A stretch of DNA of 64,000 nucleotides, taken from assembly GCA_050250895.1 (NCBI GenBank), contig JBFWNU010000003.1, positions 224,001 through 288,000 on the forward strand. Direction: 5' to 3'. Numbering within the stretch: the stretch's first letter is position 1; every line of letters begins with the position of its first letter. The translations under genes and the position numbers were made by a program. Source of the stretch: Vulcanimicrobiota bacterium. Lineage in GTDB: Bacteria; Vulcanimicrobiota; Xenobia; Xenobiales; JADMJV01. Positions 3,574-56,663 of this stretch are shown in pieces. The notes under the pieces are model-generated. The model saw nothing but the letters and a program-made list of their open reading frames with translations. It did not search any database and had not been told where the DNA came from.

Positions 3574-4083
3574 GTGGTCGTGCGCGTAACCCTCGTCGAA
3601 ATCATCTCGGCCCTGTCGTTGCTGGCGGTAGGGGCTGCCATGCTGGCCCCTCGCCCCGGTCCGGCCGATGCTCACCAGCGCGAAGCGGCCGAGTGTCGTC
3701 GCCACATCAGCCAGCTGGACTCGGCCCTGTCCCAGTATGCCAGCGACCACGACGGCGACTATCCGGGCAAGCTCGATGGGTTGACCCCCGAGTATCTCAA
3801 GACTCTGCCCACCTGCCCCCAGACCCTCAAAGGCTATGACTACGAGGTGACCGCCTCGCCCGGGGCGGCCGGCCGGGTCATGCCCCACTACCACGAGCCT
3901 CCGACGGTCGATCTGTCCCCGGCCTTGAAGGCCTACGTCGACCGCGAAGGCCACTATCCCGCCAGCCTCGGTGAGATTCCCGACCTGCCCACTTGCCCGC
4001 TGGGCTCGCCCTTCTACTACGAGGTCTATAACGGCACCTACACCCTCAAATGCAAAGGCAAACACCCGGACCCGACCCTGTAG
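3574..4083 (+). CDS. pilin/pseudopilin (GspG-like) protein
   Basis: N-terminal TLVE plus hydrophobic helix; two GxYP..L....LPTCP repeats. Confidence 0.65.
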   Translation: MVVRVTLVEIISALSLLAVGAAMLAPRPGPADAHQREAAECRRHISQLDSALSQYASDHDGDYPGKLDGLTPEYLKTLPTCPQTLKGYDYEVTASPGAAGRVMPHYHEPPTVDLSPALKAYVDREGHYPASLGEIPDLPTCPLGSPFYYEVYNGTYTLKCKGKHPDPTL

Positions 4084-6955
4084 TAGGCCGACTTCGGCGC
4101 GAGCCGCCAAGCTTAGACTGACTTCCAGGCTGGAAGTACTCGCTCGCCGCGGCGGACCGAAGGCTCAGCAGGTGTCGCCCAGCGCCGCGAGGGCTGGCAA
4201 AGCAGGCTGCAGTCGGCCGATGCCTCCGTTGCGTGCCGAGACTCCAGGCGGCGCCCCGCTTGGACTGACTTCCAGCTGGAAGTAGCCGCTCGCTCGCCGC
4301 GGCGGACCGAGGCTCGGCAGGTGTCGCCCAACGCCGTGAGGCTGTCTGGCAGAGCAGGCTGCATCCCGACTTCGGCGCGAGCCGCCAAGCTTAGACTGAC
4401 TTCCAGCTGGAAGTAGCCGTCGCCGCCGGCGGACCGAGGCTCAGCAGGTGTCGCCCAGCGCCGTGCGGGCTGGCAAAGCAGGCTGCATCCCGACTTCGGC
4501 GCGAGCCGCCAAGCTTAGATTGACTTCCAGCTGGAAGTACTCGCTCGCCGCGGCGGACCGAGGCTCGGCAGGTGTCGCCCAGCGCCGTGAGGGCTGGCAA
4601 AGCTGGCTGCAGTCGGCCGATGCTTCCGTCGCGAGCCGCCAGCCGCTCGCCGCCGCGGCGGACCGAGGCTCGGCAGGTGTCGCCCAACGCCGTGAGGCTG
4701 TCTCGCAAAGCTGGCTGCAGTCGGCCGATGCCTCCGTTGCGTGCCGAGACTCCAGGCGGCGCCAAGCTTAGATTGACTTCCAGCTGGAAGTAGCCGCTCG
4801 CCGCCGGCGGACCAGGGCTCGGCAGGTGTCGCCCCGCGCCGTGACGGATGGCATCTCGACTTCGGCGCGAGCCGCCAAGCTTAGACTGACTTCCAGCTGG
4901 AAGTAGCCGCTCGCTCGCCGCGGCGGACCGAGGCTCGGCAGGTGTCGCCCAACGCCGTGAGGCTGTCTGGCAGAGCAGGCTGCATCCCGACTTCGGCGCG
5001 AGCCGCCAGCTTAGACTGATTTCCAGCTGGAAGTACTCGCTCGCCGCGGCAGACCAAGGCTCAGCAGGTGTCGCTCTGCGCCGTGCGGGCTGGCAGAGCA
5101 GTTCTGCATCCCGACTTCGGCGCGAGCCGCCAAGCTTAGATTGACTTCCAGCTGGAAGTAGCCGCTCGCCGCTGGCGGACCAGGGCTCAGCAGGTGTCGC
5201 TCAGCGCCGTCTGTCTGGCAAAGCTGGCTGCAGTCGGCCGATGCTTCCGTCGCGAGCCGCCAAGCTTAGACTGACTTCCAGCTGGAAGTAGCCGCTCGCC
5301 GCCGCGGCGGACCAGGGCTCAGCAGGTGTCGCCCAGCGCCGTGAGGGCTGGCAAAGCTGGTTGCAGTCGGCCGATGCTTCCGTCGCGAGCCGCCAGCCGC
5401 TCGCCGCCGCGGCGGACCGAGGCTCGGCAGGTGTCGCCCAACGCCGTGAGGCTGTCTCGCAAAGCTGGCTGCAGTCGGCCGATGCCTCCGTTGCGTGCCG
5501 AGACTCCAGGCGGCGCCAAGCTTAGATTGACTTCCAGCTGGAAGTAGCCGCTCGCCGCCGGCGGACCAGGGCTCGGCAGGTGTCGCCCCGCGCCGTGACG
5601 GATGGCATCTCGACTTCGGCGCGAGCCGCCAAGCTTAGATTGACTTCCAGCTGGAAGTACTCGCTCGCCGCGGCGGACCGAGGCTCGGCAGGTGTCGCCC
5701 AACGCCGTGAGGGCTGGCAAAGCTGGCTGCAGTCGGCCGATGCTTCCGTCGCGAGCCGCGAGATGCCAAGCCCCGCCCGCTTAGACTGACTTCCAGCTGG
5801 AAGTAGCCGCTCGCCGCCGGCGGACCAGGGCTCAGCAGGTGTCGCCCAGCGCCGTGAGGGCTGGCATCCCGACTTCGGCGCGAGCCGCCAAGCTTAGACT
5901 GACTTCCAGGCTGGAAGTACTCGCTCGCCGCGGCGGACCGAAGGCTCAGCAGGTGTCGCCCAGCGCCGCGAGGGCTGGCAAAGCAGGCTGCAGTCGGCCG
6001 ATGCCTCCGTTGCGTGCCGAGACTCCAGGCGGCGCCCCGCTTGGACTGACTTCCAGCTGGAAGTAGCCGCTCGCTCGCCGCGGCGGACCGAGGCTCGGCA
6101 GGTGTCGCCCAACGCCGTGAGGCTGTCTGGCAGAGCAGGCTGCATCCCGACTTCGGCGCGAGCCGCCAAGCTTAGACTGACTTCCAGCTGGAAGTAGCCG
6201 TCGCCGCCGGCGGACCGAGGCTCAGCAGGTGTCGCCCAGCGCCGTGCGGGCTGGCAAAGCAGGCTGCAGTCGGCCGATGCCTCCGTTGCGTGCCGCGAGA
6301 TGCCAAGCCCCGCCCGCTTAGATTGACTTCCAGCTGGAAATACTCGCTCGCCGCGGCGGTCCGAGGCTCAGCAGGTGTCGCCCAGCGCCGTGCGGGCTGG
6401 CAAAGCTGGCTGCAGTCGGCCGATGCTTCCGTCGCGAGCCGCGAAATGCCAAGCCCCGCCCGCTTAGACTGACTTCCAGCTGGAAGTAGCCGCTCGCCGC
6501 CGGCGGACCAGCGCTCGGCAGGTGTCGCCCAGCGCCGTGAGGGCTGGCAGAGCAGGCTGCATCCCGACTTCGGCGCGAGCCGCCAAGCTTAGACTGACTT
6601 CCAGCTGGAAGTAGCCGTCGCCGCCGGCGGACCGAGGCTCAGCAGGTGTCGCCCAGCGCCGTGCGGGCTGGCAAAGCAGGCTGCATCCCGACTTCGGCGC
6701 GAGCCGCCAAGCTTAGATTGACTTCCAGCTGGAAGTACTCGCTCGCCGCGGCGGACCGAGGCTCGGCAGGTGTCGCCCAGCGCCGTGAGGGCTGGCAAAG
6801 CTGGCTGCAGTCGGCCGATGCTTCCGTCGCGAGCCGCCAGCCGCTCGCCGCCGCGGCGGACCGAGGCTCGGCAGGTGTCGCCCAACGCCGTGAGGCTGTC
6901 TGGCAAAGCAGGCTGCAGTCGGCCGATGCTTCCGTTGCGGGCCGCGAGATGCCGG
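4084..6955. repeat. modular tandem repeat array, ~110-150 bp units with palindrome ACTTCCAGCTGGAAGT
   Basis: About 22 units share GCAGGTGTCGC...CGCCG. 19 carry TAGAYTGACTTCCAGCTGGAAGTA or a near-identical variant (near 4120, 4268, 4399, 4523, 4776, 4889, 5019, 5144, 5274, 5530, 5643, 5789, 5902, 6049, 6180, 6326, 6472, 6597, 6721). No unique spacers. Confidence 0.95.
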
Positions 6956-7164
6956 TTCAAATGTTTTGGTATCCTAACATTTGCAAGGTGGAGGCGTTGA
7001 CTTCGAAGACCCGCCTGCCTGAACCAGGGCCCCCGGTCCTCAATAAGCGCTCTCTGGCATCCCCGCGCCAAATAGACTTGGAGAGTCATTTTCTACCCGA
7101 AACCCCTCCTCGTAGCCGTCTGTGAGTTGCGCCTCAAAGCCTGTAACCAAGCTGTTTTTCTGCG

Positions 7165-7193
7165 TTGATCCGGGTGGTCTTCTTGAGTAAAAT
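7165..7193 (+). promoter_or_regulatory. putative sigma70 promoter of the HNH gene
   Basis: TTGATC-17 nt-TAAAAT; GGAGGT RBS at 7223-7228. Confidence 0.55.
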
Positions 7194-7232
7194 AGGATCA
7201 TCCCTTGATTCTTCTTCTACTCGGAGGTCGGC

Positions 7233-8444
7233 ATGTCTTCAACTTTATCGGCACTTTCCCAGTCATTGCAACAACTTACTCACCAGGAACTACACCAGAG
7301 AAACTGCCAGACCAGCAAACGCTCCTTTGGCTGCGAATGGGACCTGGCCGCTCACCTGTTGGCCACCGAACGCAACGGGCTCTATCGACACATGGGCAGC
7401 GGCAGTGTGGTCGGCTACGCTGTGACCCACCTGAAGTTGCATCCTCAAAAGGCCGGCGAACTTCTGAGTTTAGCCAGGGTCTTCGAGCAACTCCCATTGA
7501 TCTCGGAAGCCTTTCGCGAGGGGAAGCTCTGCTGGAGCAAGGCCCGTGCTCTTAAGCGGATCACCACCCCCGAGAACGAGGCCGAGATGCTCGAGTTTGC
7601 CTTGAACAACAAGGCCCAGGCAGTCGAGCGCGCCGTGGCTCTGACTCCCACCCAGCATAAGCGTGGCCAGGCTTTGAAAGCGTCGCTCGAGGCTCGCCAG
7701 AGTCAGCCCGAACTCACCCAGGTCGAGCAACCCACAAAATCCGAGTCGGTGGCTTTACCGACCCCGGTTCCCGCGGTGCCCAAGTTGAGACAGGTCGTCT
7801 TGCTGATGACCCCCGAGCAGTATGCCGTCTACGAGCAAGCAAAGAGAATGGTCGAGGCCCGCCAGGGTAAGCGCGTCAGTAGAGAGACGGCGGTGACCGA
7901 GATGAGCAGGGCTTTACTCGGGTCGGCAGACAACCGCAGCAAAGTGCGACATCAGGTCATCGTGCACGTGAACGGTGAGACGGGCGAAGGCTTCTATGAT
8001 ACCGACCGGGGACTGTTGCCGGCCGAGGCCGAGGCCGTTGACGAGGCAATGAAGCAAACCGGCATCGTGGTGGCTTGTTCCCACAACACACTTCCAGCTG
8101 GAAGTAGCCGGTCGAAACTTCCGGCTGAAACTAGCCAGGCCGAACAGCTACCGCTACTGCCGAGTCAGCCCAAGGCCAGACCGGGTCTGCCGGTGGGGTT
8201 GGTGCGAGCGGTTTACGCCCGCGCTTTCGGTTGCTGTGAGCGATGCTCGTGCAGAGGCGGGAATTTGGTGATACACCACGTTCGTGCCTGGTCCGAAACC
8301 AGGCGACATCGGCTGGAAGACTTAGAGCTGCTATGTCCAAGTTGTCACGCCAGCGAGCACGAAGAAGACTTTGCGACTCGCACCGAGTGGAAAGCCGCCC
8401 GAGACGCCTCCGTTCGCCAACGCACCAGGTCACGCTCGCGGTGA
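7233..8444 (+). CDS. DUF222/13E12-like domain plus C-terminal HNH endonuclease
   Basis: LPLISEAFREGKLCWSKARALKRITTPENE resembles the DUF222 core; C-terminal CERC...IHHV...LEDLELLCPSCH zinc-binding HNH. Confidence 0.85.
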   Translation: MSSTLSALSQSLQQLTHQELHQRNCQTSKRSFGCEWDLAAHLLATERNGLYRHMGSGSVVGYAVTHLKLHPQKAGELLSLARVFEQLPLISEAFREGKLCWSKARALKRITTPENEAEMLEFALNNKAQAVERAVALTPTQHKRGQALKASLEARQSQPELTQVEQPTKSESVALPTPVPAVPKLRQVVLLMTPEQYAVYEQAKRMVEARQGKRVSRETAVTEMSRALLGSADNRSKVRHQVIVHVNGETGEGFYDTDRGLLPAEAEAVDEAMKQTGIVVACSHNTLPAGSSRSKLPAETSQAEQLPLLPSQPKARPGLPVGLVRAVYARAFGCCERCSCRGGNLVIHHVRAWSETRRHRLEDLELLCPSCHASEHEEDFATRTEWKAARDASVRQRTRSRSR

Positions 8445-8481
8445 GCGAAGGACCTCGCACCGGCGCTTCGAAATCAGCAGG

Positions 8482-8898
8482 ATGCGACTTCAGGGGATAC
8501 TGCTGATAGTGCTTGTGGCTGTGGGTTGCATGGGGAAGTCGCCGCCTCAGTTCTCGCACCAGCAGGTACGCGAGAATCTGGTAACGCGGATAGCCCAGGT
8601 AAAGGGCCTGATGGACGAGACCCCCGCGCTTGAGGCGCGCTTAGAGGCTCTGAAGAAAGAGGTTCCAGCCGAGCGCCGACCGACCCCCGAGCAAGTCCAG
8701 GCTCAGGAGCCGGACGACTACGAGCGCCGCTTTGGCCTGGGATATCCCTACGAACTCGACTGGCATCTCTATTCGCCCGCAGAGCAGAAAGAGCTAAGGC
8801 AGCTGCAAACCGACCTCGACCGACTGGGTCAGGAGTCCGAGCGCTTTTTCCAACTCGAGGCCGAACTCAAAGTGTGGGAGCAGGCGAAGCAGCCGTGA
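8482..8898 (+). CDS. putative coiled-coil lipoprotein
   Basis: MRLQGILLIVLVAVGC lipobox-like signal, then coiled coil. Confidence 0.6.
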   Translation: MRLQGILLIVLVAVGCMGKSPPQFSHQQVRENLVTRIAQVKGLMDETPALEARLEALKKEVPAERRPTPEQVQAQEPDDYERRFGLGYPYELDWHLYSPAEQKELRQLQTDLDRLGQESERFFQLEAELKVWEQAKQP

Positions 8899-9371
8899 GA
8901 AAGCTGGTCGAGCTGCTGGCAGTCTTGTTAGTGGTCGCGGTCGTGGTGTCGAGCGGTCGACCAGAGCGAGAAGAAGAGTATGTCATCCACTCGACCCCGT
9001 CGGTCAAAGTGATCGAGTTTCTGTCGGCCACTTATCCCGAGGTTCATTTCGCGCGGCACCCGAGCCGCCGGGGTCTGGTCGCCGTGGGTAGCCGTGAAGA
9101 GATCGCCAGGGTCCGCAGCACGCTTCACCAACTCGAGGTCCCCGAACCCCCGCCTCCCCCCGCCCGCGAGTTTCTGAGGGTGAAGCCCGGCGAGCTCGAG
9201 ACGACGAGGGAGCGCCTCCAGGCCGCCGTTCCCACCCTGAAAGTGAGGGTCGAGCCCCGCCTGAATTGTCTACTCCTGGAGGGGGAACCGGCGGATGTCA
9301 GGCGGGCCAGAGAGCTGGTGGACCTGTCCGGCCGGCCTGTGGAGCCTTCGCGCAGCAGCGCCGCTGACTGA
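8895..9371 (+). CDS. secretin N-domain (NolW-like) repeat protein
   Basis: GTGA overlap with the upstream stop; TM/signal segment, then two N-domain-like units (GLVAVGSREEIARVR; EPRLNCLLLEGEPADVRRA). Confidence 0.6.
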   Translation: MRKLVELLAVLLVVAVVVSSGRPEREEEYVIHSTPSVKVIEFLSATYPEVHFARHPSRRGLVAVGSREEIARVRSTLHQLEVPEPPPPPAREFLRVKPGELETTRERLQAAVPTLKVRVEPRLNCLLLEGEPADVRRARELVDLSGRPVEPSRSSAAD

Positions 9372-14252: not shown

Positions 14253-20579
<6,327 letters not shown>

Positions 20580-38534: not shown

Positions 38535-38605
38535 CATTTGGCCTGGGTTGGTGTGGCGGGTTTCGACTGGCGGCGACGGCGCGGCGCGTGGTCGTAGCAC
38601 AGGTC

Positions 38606-40380
38606 GGTGTGGCTCGCCAGTGGGGCGCCCGAAAAATAAACCGCGGAGATCAGGAGGGCACGGAGAGGGTTGTGGGGGCGTGGGGTGAGCGTCCTGGCGA
38701 AATTATGGGTTGGGGTTTTGCCCCATCGAACGGGGTGCTCAAAACGGCGGTGGCTCGGTGGCTGCGGATCCCGGCGCACGACCCTCGACCGGCCGGGGCA
38801 ACCCGCGGCTCGGGCAGGGCGGGTGAAGCCCGGCCGGGCTTCCTTGCGGAAGTGGCCGGGCGGGGGTGCCGAATCGCCGCCAGGGCTAGCCACGACTTCC
38901 ACGTGGAAGTGTGCCCGGGGCTGGCGGATGCGGCCGCAGCCGGACTTCCGTCCGGAAGTGGCCTGGCTTGATTCGCTCGCGGCGGGGGCGGCTGGTGTGG
39001 CTCGCCAGTGGGGCGTCCGAAAAATAAACCGCGGAGATCAGGAGGGCCCGGAGAGGGTTGTGGGGGGCGTGGGGTGAGCGTCCTGGCGAAATTGTGGGTT
39101 GGGGTTTTGCCCCATCGAACGGGGTGCTCAAAACGGCGGTGGCTCGGTGGCTGCGGATCCCGGCGCACGACCCTCGACCGGCCGGGGCAACCCGCGGCTC
39201 GGGCAGGGCGGGTGAAGCCCGGCCGGGCTTCTTTGCGGAAGTGGCCGGGCGGGGGTGCCGAATCGCCGCCAGGGCTAGCCACGACTTCCACGTGGAAGTG
39301 TGCCCGGGGCTGGCGGATGCAGCCCGGCCGGACTTCCGTCCGGAAGTGGCTGGGCGGGTTGGCCCGCTTGGCCGCCCGGGTCGGCCGCGACTTCCAGGTG
39401 GAAGTGATGCCTTCGGGCAGGGCGGATGCAGCCCGGCCGGACAGTGGCCTGGCCGATTCGCTCGCGGCGGGGGCGGCTGGTGTGTCTCGCCAGTTGGGTG
39501 CCTGAGAAATCAACCGCGGAGATCAGGAGGGCCCGGAGAGGGGTTGTGGGGGGCGTGGGGTGAGCGTCCTGGCGAAATTATGGGTTAGGGTTTTGCCGCA
39601 TCGAACGGGGTGCTCAAAACGGCGGTGGCTCGGTGGCTGCGGATCCCGGCGCACGACCCTCGACCGGCCGGGGCAACCCGCGGCTCGGGCAGGGCGGGTG
39701 AAGCCCGGCCGGGCTTCCTTGCGGAAGTGGCCGGGCGGGGGTGCCGAATCGCCGCCAGGGCTAGCCACGACTTCCACGTGGAAGTGTGCCCGGGGCTGGC
39801 GGATGCAGCCGCAGCCGGACTTCCTTGCGGAAGTGGCCTGGCGAATCGCTCGCGGCGGGGACGGCCTGGGGCGGCGAGTTGGCTGGCCGCCGCGGGTTTT
39901 GGCTGGCCAGGCGGGCTGCGGTGTGGCCTGGGCCGAACGCTTGCTCGCTAGCAGCCGGCGGTTGTGCGCCGCACAATCAGCTCTGGGCAGTGTGCGGCGC
40001 AAGTGTGCGCCGTACAACGCGATTTGGCTGGTGTGCGGCGCACGATCCTCGACCGGCGCCGGGAAACCCGCGGCTCGGGCAGGGCGGGTGCAGCCCGGCC
40101 GGACTTCCGTCCGGAAGTGGCCGGGCGCTTCGCTCGCGGCGGGGCGGCTGGGCGCGGCGGCTTTGGCCGGCTTGGCCGCCAGGGTCGGCCGCGATTTCCA
40201 CGTGGAAGTGTGCCCTGGGGTTGGCGGGTGCAGCCCGGCCGGACTTCCGTTCGGAAGTGGCCTGGCGACTCGCTCGCGGCGGGGGCGGCTGGGCGCGGCG
40301 AGTAGGCTCGCCGCCGCGGTTTGGCTGGCTTGGCGCCCGGGTCAGCCGCGACTTCCACGTGGAAGTAATGCCTTCGGGCC
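38606..40380. repeat. intergenic composite repeat array with ACTTCC-N4-GGAAGT dyads
   Basis: Three near-identical long blocks starting near 38607, 38995 and 39480, then degenerate sub-blocks; 14 dyads with cores ACGT, GTCC, TTGC, AGGT, GTTC. Confidence 0.92.
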
Positions 40381-40416
40381 TGGCAGCCGCAGCCAGACTC
40401 CCCATGCGCAAGCGGC

Positions 40417-40827
40417 CTATTCGTCGAGCCAGCCTTCACCAGCGAGCAGGGTTCGGCAGGCCTCACAGAATTCGTGAGCGCGCGAAAAGATGTCCTTGAT
40501 GTCGTTCTCGGCGTAGATCGTCGAGGCATCATCGTCGGCTGCTTCTCGTTCGCCCTGGAGCTGGGTCAAAGCCCGGGGCGCTGAGCTGGGTAGTCTGCCA
40601 GGTCGGACGAAATGCAGGTTGAGAAGGGTGGCGATTCCAGTATGGGTTCGAGCCTCGAGACCTTCGGTCAAAAGAACGGCCCGAGCCGAATGAACCATGG
40701 CGTAGTAGGCCCGCGAGACCGCGTCGGCGTTGAGGCCTGCCTGGCGCAGATTGGCAGCCGCCAGCCAGCTTTCTTGCCCGCGCTTGAGTTCGAGTTTCAG
40801 GTTGCGGCGTCGATTGTCTTCGGTCAT
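40417..40827 (-). CDS. HEPN domain protein (MNT-HEPN module)
   Basis: AVSRAYYAM, ARTHTG, ...REAADD. Confidence 0.85.
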   Translation of the reverse strand: MTEDNRRRNLKLELKRGQESWLAAANLRQAGLNADAVSRAYYAMVHSARAVLLTEGLEARTHTGIATLLNLHFVRPGRLPSSAPRALTQLQGEREAADDDASTIYAENDIKDIFSRAHEFCEACRTLLAGEGWLDE

Positions 40828-41132
40828 ACCTGAATGCCTTCTTCCAGAATGTCTCGGGCCAGCCGGCGCTCGTGGTCGAGTAGGCCCTGGAAATGAGACT
40901 CGCTCATGACGTGGGGGCTTGGGGCATATGGCAGCGAAAGCTCGTCAGCCACATCCCAGGCCAGCCCCATCAGCTCCATTCTCAGGGCTCGGTCCTCCTC
41001 TCGTTGCATTACGAACAGGTCAAGGTCCGAGTCGAGCTGGGCGTCACCCCGCGCCCGCGAGCCGAAGATGCGAACTTGCTGAACAGCCTCACCGTATAAC
41101 TCTCTAGCCCGCTCACGGTAGCGTGCGTGCAT
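40824..41132 (-). CDS. minimal nucleotidyltransferase (MNT) antitoxin
   Basis: IFGSRARGD..DSDLDL; C-terminal EEGI; 4-bp overlap with HEPN; start uncertain, possibly frameshifted. Confidence 0.85.
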   Translation of the reverse strand: MHARYRERARELYGEAVQQVRIFGSRARGDAQLDSDLDLFVMQREEDRALRMELMGLAWDVADELSLPYAPSPHVMSESHFQGLLDHERRLARDILEEGIQV

Positions 41133-41319
41133 AGTCCAGGTCAAGCTGGGTGGGCATGGAGAAAGCTTCAGGACCAACAACAGCTCTCCCTGTCGGGCAA
41201 ATTATGGGGAAACCGTAACAATGTGTTCATCTGGTGTCAATATTTAGGGGCCGGGGTCGAAACTTGTCGCGCCAACCGGGATCTAGAATGGTCGAAACAG
41301 ACACCCTCAGGAGGCCCCA

Positions 41320-42015
41320 GTGAACGTAGTCAGTCCGACGACCTTTCCGACCGCACCAGCATTTAATCCCCTCGCGCTCGCGTTCGGGAGCCGGCTGGCG
41401 GCGCCGGTGGCCCCTTCGTTCTTTGCTCCGGGAGAGTTTCTAGGCTCGCTGTCGACCCTCAGTCAGGGTTGGGCCGGTTTTGCGGGCTTTCCGCCGGCCC
41501 TGGCTCTGGCCAATCCAGCCTTCGGCCCCTTCGAGACCATCGCTGTTCCCTCGGTGGGCGACGACTTCCTCAAGTCGCTCACCAGCGGCAAGGTCAGTCT
41601 GCCCAGCGGTGGCGACGGCGCGTTCGCCGGTTTCCCGCCGGCCCTGGGTCTTCCCAATCCGGCCTTTGGTCCGTTTCCCGGCATCGATGTGCCCGCCGTG
41701 GGCGACGATTTCCTCAAAGAGCTGCTGAGCGGTAAAGCCAAGTTGCCCACGGGCTCGGCTGGCGGCGCGCTGCCGGGCTTCCCTCCAGCCCTCGGCCTGG
41801 CCCACCCGGCTTTCGGTCCCTTTGCCAACATCGGCGTCCCGGCGGTGGGGGACGACTTCCTCAAGACCGCCCTGGGTGGCAAAGGCAAGAGCAACGTGCT
41901 GATGGGTGGCTTTCCGGCTCTCGACATGGGCCCCTTCGCCAACCTGGGCATCAACTTCGACATCAGCGCCTCGACCCCTGACCAGGCCGCCAGGCGAGGC
42001 CGCAAAGGCCGCTAG
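41320..42015 (+). CDS. Pro/Gly/Phe-rich repeat protein of unknown function
   Basis: AGGAGG RBS; three repeats GFPPAL.L.(N/H)PAFGPF..I.VP.VGDDFLK. Confidence 0.75.
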   Translation: MNVVSPTTFPTAPAFNPLALAFGSRLAAPVAPSFFAPGEFLGSLSTLSQGWAGFAGFPPALALANPAFGPFETIAVPSVGDDFLKSLTSGKVSLPSGGDGAFAGFPPALGLPNPAFGPFPGIDVPAVGDDFLKELLSGKAKLPTGSAGGALPGFPPALGLAHPAFGPFANIGVPAVGDDFLKTALGGKGKSNVLMGGFPALDMGPFANLGINFDISASTPDQAARRGRKGR

Positions 42016-56354: not shown

Positions 56355-56663
56355 CGTCGCTCCCTTCGGCGCTTCGCGCCGCGCCGCTGGGCCGACTTTA
56401 GATGAGCGTCGGCCCGGGCGCGGCTTGACGGGATCGACGAGAACGCAAGATCAGAGGGCGGGGCTGGAGTGGGAGGCGACGTTCTCGTCGCTCCCTTCGG
56501 CGCTTCGCGCCGCGCCGCTGGGCCGACTTTAGATGAGCGTCGGCCCGGGCGCGGCTTGACGGGATCGACGAGAACGCAAGATCAGAGGGCGGGGCTGGAG
56601 TGGGAGGCGACGTTCTCGTCGCTCCCTTCGGCGCTTCGCGCCGCGCCGCTGGGCCGACTTTAG
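56355..56663. repeat. 131-bp direct tandem repeat (~2.4 copies) with internal hairpins
   Basis: CGTCGCTCCCTTCGGCGCTTCGCGCC... starts at 56355, 56486 and 56617. Confidence 0.9.

Follow-up and report, generated by a model that had tools for sequence, protein, structure and literature searches.

A Vulcanimicrobiota genome carries, side by side, a tandem array of palindromic repeats and a gene for a DUF222-like protein with an HNH nuclease domain, and the arrangement raises the question of whether repeats and gene belong together and, if so, what the protein may do with the palindrome. The locus (nt 4084–8444) lies in a stretch of 64,000 nt (the window; positions 224,001–288,000 of contig JBFWNU010000003.1, assembly GCA_050250895.1) that had been flagged in an earlier note, made from the sequence alone. 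The analysis favours, with a probability of roughly one half, the reading that the 16-bp palindrome ACTTCCAGCTGGAAGT is the cis-site of the adjoining DUF222-like/HNH cassette, and that the array (array 1) is a tandem, still-recombining amplification of a site found, as a rule, at the 5' edge of such cassettes.

Array 1 (nt 4084–6953, + strand) is about 2.9 kb long, has a GC content of 0.67–0.70 and consists of a leading partial unit followed by 22 mosaic tandem units of 105–149 bp. The core CAGGTGTCGC occurs 22 times in it, from 4169 to 6872, at a spacing of 105–149 bp, and Tandem Repeats Finder (TRF) returned periods of 124 and 366. With up to one mismatch, ACTTCCAGCTGGAAGT matched at 19 places in the 64-kb window (0.00 expected, from 100 shuffles). 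Seventeen of these lie inside array 1 (15 exact; those at 5019 and 6326 with one mismatch each), and the other two are an exact copy at 8090–8105, within the HNH gene, and a one-mismatch copy at 39390. Two further units of the array (~4121 and ~5901) carry a form with a 1-nt insertion, ACTTCCAGGCTGGAAGT, and the number of palindrome-bearing units is therefore 19 (nt 4121–6736, unstranded). The palindrome is part of a 28-bp module (AAGCTTAGACTG plus the palindrome) that is cleanly absent, as an indel, from three 105-bp units (u04, u10 and u21), and the last unit of the array is truncated. The description given in the earlier note, of ~22 units of which 19 bear the palindrome or a variant and which end ~280 bp before the gene, is borne out by motif search, TRF and alignment.

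Multiple alignment of the units revealed a mosaic of alternative sub-modules, with at least ten distinct variants of the unit that follow one another without periodicity. Far-apart parts of the array hold 300-nt blocks of 100% identity (4088–4387 and 5869–6168; 4346–4645 and 6544–6843), from which it follows that array 1 has been rearranging recently. The same perfect duplications could be taken to mean that part of the length or order of the array comes from repeat mis-assembly of this metagenome-assembled genome (MAG), and the closest relatives, too, are all from MAGs. Such an artefact is highly improbable, however, given the number of unit variants and their irregular order, and given that unique sequence surrounds the array on a contig whose reported length is 861 kb; the copy in the gene and a second array, described below, are moreover independent of the length of array 1.

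The array begins directly past the stop codon (4081–4083) of a pseudopilin-like gene and ends at ~6953, 280 bp before the ATG (7233) of the HNH gene. A terminator-like stem lies at its end (6939–6958, + strand), with an inverted repeat, CAAATGTT-N10-AACATTTG (6958–6983, + strand), directly past it. The DNA of array 1 gave no match to plasmids and phages (blastn, distant mode). Two spurious open reading frames (ORFs; 5319–5720, − strand, and 6646–7125, + strand) had 0 matches (555 candidates at E ≤ 0.001; 1.84 billion representatives), a result that is uninformative, the sets being without the window's own ORFs. Two short sequences at the borders of the cassette, noticed by eye, are possible degenerate edge sites: GACTTCGAAGAC, a short palindrome at 6999–7010, 223 bp before the HNH start codon, and CTTCGAA at 8466–8472, 22 nt past the HNH stop codon.

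The HNH gene (nt 7233–8444, + strand; 403 aa) is preceded by a promoter-like TTGATC-17-TAAAAT (7165–7193, + strand; one site found, 0.3 expected) and a GGAGG ribosome-binding site (7223–7227, + strand), in line with the note, which gave it a promoter and ribosome-binding site of its own. The copy of the palindrome that lies within the gene is, with the second array, an addition to what the note had described. Together with 9 nt of 3' flank (8090–8114) it matches array 1 at 24 of 25 positions and in the same orientation, the stretch in common being ACTTCCAGCTGGAAGTAGCCG[G/C]TCG, and it is the sole significant match to array 1 in the other 61 kb of the window. It is in frame, codes for LPAGS (residues 287–291) and, with a 27-bp tandem duplication (8090–8144 in all, + strand), falls in a linker that is predicted to be disordered (predicted local distance difference test score (pLDDT) below 50 for residues 276–316). 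The motif L[PS]AG[STR] is kept in 14/14 close homologues (exactly LPAGS in 11 of them), while neighbouring linker residues vary; six homologues at 42–49% identity are without it. Because the motif is retained in an otherwise variable and presumably disordered linker, the in-gene site looks to be under constraint as DNA.

Distant homologues were examined on genome contigs at 49 loci from four other phyla (best-segment identity ≤57%). Perfect palindromes of at least 14 bp were scored in a gene zone reaching from 350 bp before the ORF to 150 bp past it (90 kb) and in the other 722 kb. An identical palindrome pair was present at the gene in 23/49 loci, against 2/49 in the eight-fold larger flanks, and palindrome density was 0.87 per kb at the gene compared with 0.22 per kb in the flanks. 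The palindrome types are lineage-specific and of the TTCC..GGAA / CCAC..GTGG class: ACGTTCCCGCGGGAACGT in Gemmatimonadota, TTTCCCGCGGGAAA or TTCTCCGCGGAGAA in Actinomycetota, TACTCCGCGGAGTA in Granulosicoccaceae and ..CCCACGTGGG.. in Myxococcota. In most relatives an upstream copy stands 16–270 bp before the start, at the 5' edge of a ~1.5-kb paralogous unit. An internal copy lies 650–1160 nt into the ORF (counted from the first possible start codon), reading HVPAGTS, VPAGT, FPAGN or VFPAGN in the linker, and a third copy is often found 13–26 nt past the stop codon. In three phyla (HVPAGTS, FPAGN, LPAGS) the internal copy is in the same frame as in the window gene. That palindrome and gene are linked by more than adjacency is supported, since the same 25 nt (24/25) recur inside the gene and the distant homologues carry palindromes of their own at the cassette edge and in the linker.

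The limits of the cassette can be seen where its copies are compared (loci are numbered L). Similarity between paralogues begins at the upstream palindrome in L011/L016 (9657/9656) and just before it in L006/L049 (4 nt) and L043/L047 (5 nt), and between paralogous or related copies it fades near the stop codon. A 22-nt inverted pair brackets the cassette unit of L016. A 927-bp indel (L043:8732–9658 versus L047:1059–1076) ends 5 nt before the cassette palindrome and is another rearrangement breakpoint at a cassette site. In one Myxococcota MAG, the DUF222-HNH genes of L003 (9160–11811) and L005 (9329–11774) lie within inverted repeats of 100–400 bp that are 77–96% complementary, with two long palindromes (20–40 bp) at the 3' end, followed by 34- and 39-bp tandem repeats. 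L046, which belongs to the clade nearest the window protein, has ~2.3 tandem units of ~310 bp upstream of its gene, with a near-palindrome at −987, −675 and −369, and the 41-nt flank of its internal copy is 71% like these upstream units; they are a small independent parallel to array 1. Paralogous ~1.5-kb units occur in Palauibacter, and copies that are syntenic across species indicate vertical inheritance.

Sites in front of genes could also be operators, that is, sites at which a host regulator (LexA-like or a nucleoid protein) controls a DNA-damage-inducible HNH gene. Two papers describe the mycobacterial 13E12 HNH genes (M. tuberculosis), one stating that DNA damage induces them (PMC13157036) and the other that they are under LexA, through the SOS box TCGAAC-N4-GTTCGA (PMC4181829), and the position of the upstream copy in most of the 49 loci would suit such a role. 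The account is nevertheless unlikely. In a scan from 500 bp before the start to 300 bp past the stop, GAAC-N4-GTTC was found upstream of 0/49 genes, the only hits being those in L011 and L029, ~1.8–2 kb downstream of the start. A tblastn search of plasmids gave HNH-domain matches only, in two records, for the window protein, and one record for a Modestobacter homologue. The latter (L050, a Rhodococcus erythropolis plasmid) has CGTCCCCGCGGGGACG (2823–2838) and then a separate SOS-box-like TCGAACGTACATTCGA (2885–2900), both upstream of the annotated HNH gene, and CGTCCCCGCGGGGACG is the sole palindrome of at least 14 bp in 6.5 kb. The SOS box was accordingly rejected as the identity of the palindrome. 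In-frame internal copies, 3' copies and arrays of 12–19 copies would all be superfluous for an operator, and the palindromes are similar in Actinomycetota, Gemmatimonadota and the window, whereas LexA boxes differ between phyla.

The earlier note ascribed a DUF222-like domain and a zinc-binding HNH domain to the protein, and in profile searches the second scored above its cut-off while the first fell below. The HNH match (PF01844) reached 34.6 bits (cut-off 21.4) over residues 335–377 (nt 8235–8363, + strand), and that to DUF222 (PF02720) reached 21.0–22.3 bits (cut-off 24.4) over profile positions 5–136 of 306. The CxxC pairs C335/C338 and C368/C371, as well as H348-H349, H372 and H376, are invariant in 20 homologue sequences. 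Compared with PDB chains, the profile of the protein matched in the HNH domain only (IscB, 6.8e-5; McrA, 9e-5), and PADLOC returned no match for it. An Atlas search gave only DUF222-type and unnamed clusters, the nearest having DUF222 on 21% of its members, and the precomputed PF02720 assignment is present on 5/27 homologues (P0009, P0011, P0012, P0021 and P0024). The nearest proteins, 13 sequences of 73–84% identity from Vulcanimicrobiota MAGs, carry the name 'HNH endonuclease signature motif containing protein'; their distribution suggests that the gene is present as two or three copies per genome among close Vulcanimicrobiota homologues.

Structure prediction places a candidate DNA-binding domain at the other end of the protein. 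The N-terminal helical domain (residues 1–156; nt 7233–7700, + strand) has a predicted ParB/Spo0J/Noc DNA-binding fold and forms part of a predicted dimer interface. A model of residues 1–160 had a pLDDT of 86.7 and a predicted template modelling (pTM) score of 0.77, and when it was submitted to Foldseek, all 16 rows listed for ranks 1–20 were ParB/Spo0J/Noc proteins (probability 0.72–1.00), the first non-ParB row having a probability of 0.11. Template modelling (TM) scores reached 0.58 by query and 0.73 by target (6y93_B, the Noc DNA-binding domain on its site), with a root-mean-square deviation of 2.5–3.1 Å for the best rows, and the full-length model returned the same families. Complex prediction for two copies of the protein scored 0.77, while the best of three controls scored 0.00; in calibration, the mark was reached by 20/30 proteins solved as pairs of one chain and by 1/23 solved as single chains. 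The predicted dimer is symmetric, with contacts through residues 4–102 and 183–265; the prediction runs have 92% or more of their contacts in common, with a partner pLDDT of at least 63. The HNH protein is thus predicted to form a symmetric homodimer, and a dimer of ParB/Noc-like domains would be the expected reader of a 16-bp palindrome.

The second array (array 2, nt 38580–40400, + strand) consists of mosaic repeats with sub-units of ~105–157 bp and a higher order of 389/486 bp. It carries 12 CTTCC-N4-GGAAG motifs, with the centres ACGT, GTCC, TTGC, AGGT and GTTC, and has the ACTTCC-N4-GGAAGT arms in common with array 1. In the whole window the CTTCC-N4-GGAAG motif occurs 28 times (0.14 expected): 15 times in array 1, once in the gene and 12 times in array 2, and within the 64 kb it is confined to these three places. 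Array 2 also holds three copies of an 18-bp palindrome, GAAGCCCGGCCGGGCTTC, at 38825, 39214 and 39700. Beyond the arms, the similarity of the two arrays is not significant, 12 and 53 of 100 shuffles reaching the observed flank score. A flank match seen by eye, ACTCGCTCGC(C)GCGGCGG, was rejected on this ground (12/100 shuffles). Two repeat families that are otherwise unlike each other thus have kept the same arms, and units of similar size, which argues for a function of the arms.

The note's alternative, in which structured RNAs made from a transcript of the array load or guide the nuclease, is not supported and is very improbable. The units are direct repeats on one strand, each able to form a 6-bp hairpin, and the HNH domain bears a distant resemblance to the one in IscB. 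Against this, the sole Rfam match between 3500 and 9000 (E ≤ 1) was sub-threshold (15.9 bits versus 53.5), so that no Rfam family was found at threshold, and 265 nt showed no excess folding energy (z = −0.25 and −0.20 on the two strands). Mutations in the arms are uncompensated (ATTTCC, GGAAAT), the arms being kept in sequence. No tRNA or tmRNA was found at the locus. The locus is unlike IscB in that the IscB model (NF040563) scored 26.9 bits against a cut-off of 175, at profile positions 187–247 only, which is the HNH part, and unlike a CRISPR array in that it lacks unique spacers, each part of a unit being found again in other units, and in that the ORFs scanned include no cas family.

A stronger competitor is the view that the two arrays are ordinary intergenic tandem repeats, of a minisatellite kind or similar to repetitive extragenic palindromic (REP) sequences and bacterial interspersed mosaic elements (BIMEs), which lengthen and shorten by slippage and unequal crossing-over. 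Array 1 would then have been seeded from the cassette, or have exchanged a short patch with it, and the arrays would be functionless, with no part for the HNH protein. The perfect 300-nt blocks and the shuffling of sub-modules fit plain homologous recombination, and the unremarkable RNA folding suits this view as well. It is the less likely of the two all the same, because the 6+6 arms are the same in both arrays although the flanks show no significant similarity, because palindromes recur at fixed cassette positions in four other phyla, and because L046, independently, has tandem upstream units with a palindrome of its own.

Several observations weigh against the palindrome being the cassette's own site, and two of them speak for passive repeats. 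Array 2, 31 kb from array 1, has a TPR gene on one side and a HEPN/nucleotidyltransferase pair on the other, with no HNH gene adjoining, and such arrays therefore need no adjacent HNH gene. The earlier note had counted a palindrome independent of HNH genes as evidence against its own idea; array 2 goes part of the way in that direction. The note also proposed to look for palindromic arrays beside homologues, and among the distant ones the outcome was negative: TRF detected no kb-scale non-coding array beside the gene at any of the 49 loci. The number of sites is one to three at most of them, and tandem upstream units are present in L046 alone. The loci are not independent, as 19/49 are from Palauibacter or other Gemmatimonadota and several are syntenic orthologues. 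Two solo palindromes (L018:755 and L022:19650) have no HNH gene nearby. In a quick tree of 44 rows (43 of them loci, with six loci whose ORFs are shorter than 330 aa left out, and with the window protein on a branch of 2.69), 10/43 locus rows are without such a palindrome, and palindrome type tracks host phylum as much as protein clade, two effects that this tree cannot separate. The likeness to ParB is structural only: Foldseek E-values are ~0.4, no ParB family was found in Pfam at E ≤ 10 for residues 1–166, and no ParB chain in the PDB profile search at E ≤ 10. The canonical HNH Asn is replaced by Asp363 here, and by Glu in the 42–49% identity group, so that HNH activity is uncertain. Binding, cleavage and a role of the protein in amplification are all putative.

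In the most economical account, the palindrome belongs to the cassette as its site and the ParB/Noc-like domain binds it, array 1 being an expansion of the 5' site. In the mechanism proposed for it, each N-terminal domain of the dimer would read one half-site (ACTTCC), and the HNH domain would nick or cut at or near bound sites. Recombinational repair might then copy or homogenise cassettes, and unequal exchange in this genome could have expanded the 5' site into arrays, which may also soak up HNH protein. The weakest of these steps is the one that leads from binding to amplification.

The genes around the locus are ordinary chromosomal ones (a CHAT-TPR protein, histidine kinases, transketolase and others). 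Among 37 ORFs scanned with Pfam (7 + 26 + 4; away from the locus only ORFs of at least 200 aa), no cas, transposase, RAYT (Y1/HUH), integrase or ParA family was found, in agreement with the note, which had seen no cas, tnpA or RAYT gene, and the 64-kb window holds no second HNH homologue. Array 1 and the HNH gene stand between the pseudopilin-like gene (3574–4083; GspG model E = 2.7e-4, below cut-off) and a lipoprotein-like ORF, after which comes a Secretin_N ORF (8482–9371). Together they have the look of 4.4 kb inserted into a cluster of secretion or pilus genes. The HEPN/nucleotidyltransferase pair next to array 2 (40417–41180, − strand) looks like a toxin–antitoxin pair, and its nucleotidyltransferase matches the PADLOC candidate system PDC-S09. 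Other repeats were noted in the window. A perfect (100%) 131-bp tandem repeat of 2.4 copies (56355–56663) has a SWIM zinc-finger ORF on one side and an ORF for a SpoIIE-type phosphatase on the other; it contains no TTCC..GGAA palindrome. A 2108-aa hybrid histidine kinase (14253–20579) has 11 HAMP repeats, which account for a 276-bp coding tandem repeat at 14687–17666. The ORF at 41320–42015, with no Pfam family, contains a 144-bp coding repeat (41483–41864) whose units carry GFPPAL...NPAFGPF...VGDDFLK.

DUF222-HNH genes are abundant and multi-copy and, in the reports cited here, are described without a defined function, yet they are recombination hotspots in an important pathogen. This poorly understood and widespread family gains a likely DNA target from a candidate site that keeps its position in five phyla, from the dimer prediction and from a fold predicted to bind DNA. 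Should the protein act on the sites, these arrays would tie a REP-like repeat population to an HNH enzyme for the first time, and in the in-frame copy a conserved peptide motif would be dictated by a DNA element.

One of the known systems that come close is REP13E12/DUF222-HNH of mycobacteria and other Actinomycetota (PF02720 + PF01844), in which a zinc HNH domain likewise follows a DUF222-like N-terminal part and which is multi-copy per genome, as are the homologues here (~80% identity) and the ~1.5-kb units of Palauibacter. The window protein differs in that its DUF222 score lies below the gathering cut-off. Two reports describe the M. tuberculosis genes as hotspots of gene conversion and inversion breakpoints with no defined function (PMC13061034, PMC13157036), and a site-specific break inside the gene would fit these reports. 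A full-text search of literature on DUF222/REP13E12 found no cognate palindromes, ParB-like fold or site arrays, with subscription journals and supplements outside its reach and an earlier mention possible there. A wider proposal, made tentatively and at rather worse than even odds, is that DUF222-HNH cassettes, including REP13E12, are phylum-spanning elements that propagate themselves or trigger recombination. Their ParB/Noc-like domain would read a 14–26-bp palindrome at the cassette ends and in the linker, and the HNH domain would break the DNA there, as an HNH counterpart of the transposase of REP sequences (the REP-associated tyrosine transposase, RAYT); in this Vulcanimicrobiota genome the site would have escaped into tandem arrays. 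Breakage at the palindromes would also explain the inversion breakpoints and gene-conversion hotspots of 13E12.

Free-standing homing endonucleases of the HNH type, and small insertion sequences that have terminal inverted repeats, resemble the cassette as compact one-gene units whose two ends carry identical or inverted sites (L016; the long inverted flanks of L003 and L005), in multiple copies that end at sites. They differ in that no intron or intein context, transposase or target-site duplication was identified here, and in that several copies are syntenic across species.

ParB-parS, Noc and its binding sites (NBS), and SopB-sopC share with the window protein the predicted fold of the DNA-binding domain and 16-bp palindromes read by a dimer, which here is a predicted one and a putative reader. 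A parS site lies inside spo0J of Bacillus subtilis, as a site lies inside the HNH gene, and sopC of the F plasmid consists of tandem repeats each with one palindrome, as does array 1. The HNH protein is unlike ParB and Noc in having no ParB/Srx cytidine triphosphate (CTP)-binding N-terminal domain and no similarity at the sequence level, and the system as a whole differs in the attached nuclease domain, in having no ParA gene among the scanned ORFs and in its unit length of 105–149 bp.

RAYT is a Y1/HUH transposase flanked by REP palindromes, which also occur dispersed and as BIME clusters. The enzyme here is instead an HNH nuclease with a helix-turn-helix-type domain, and the sites are perfect 16-bp palindromes, one of them within the coding sequence, which in the 64 kb are found only in two tandem arrays and the gene and are not scattered singly. 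The two systems are alike in that a nuclease gene is flanked by its own short palindrome (the array on the 5' side and a copy inside; in relatives at the 5' edge, in the linker and past the stop), and in that the palindrome is also multiplied elsewhere, partly as mosaic tandem clusters. The absence of kb-scale arrays at the 49 loci, together with array 2, which has no HNH gene, counts against the strong form of the note's proposal of an HNH-based analogue of REP/RAYT, whereas palindromes at the edge and in the linker in four other phyla count in favour of the proposal. As a description of a possible mode of action the analogy is a fair one, because the palindrome is linked to the gene and the protein is predicted to have a ParB/Noc-like fold and to form a dimer.

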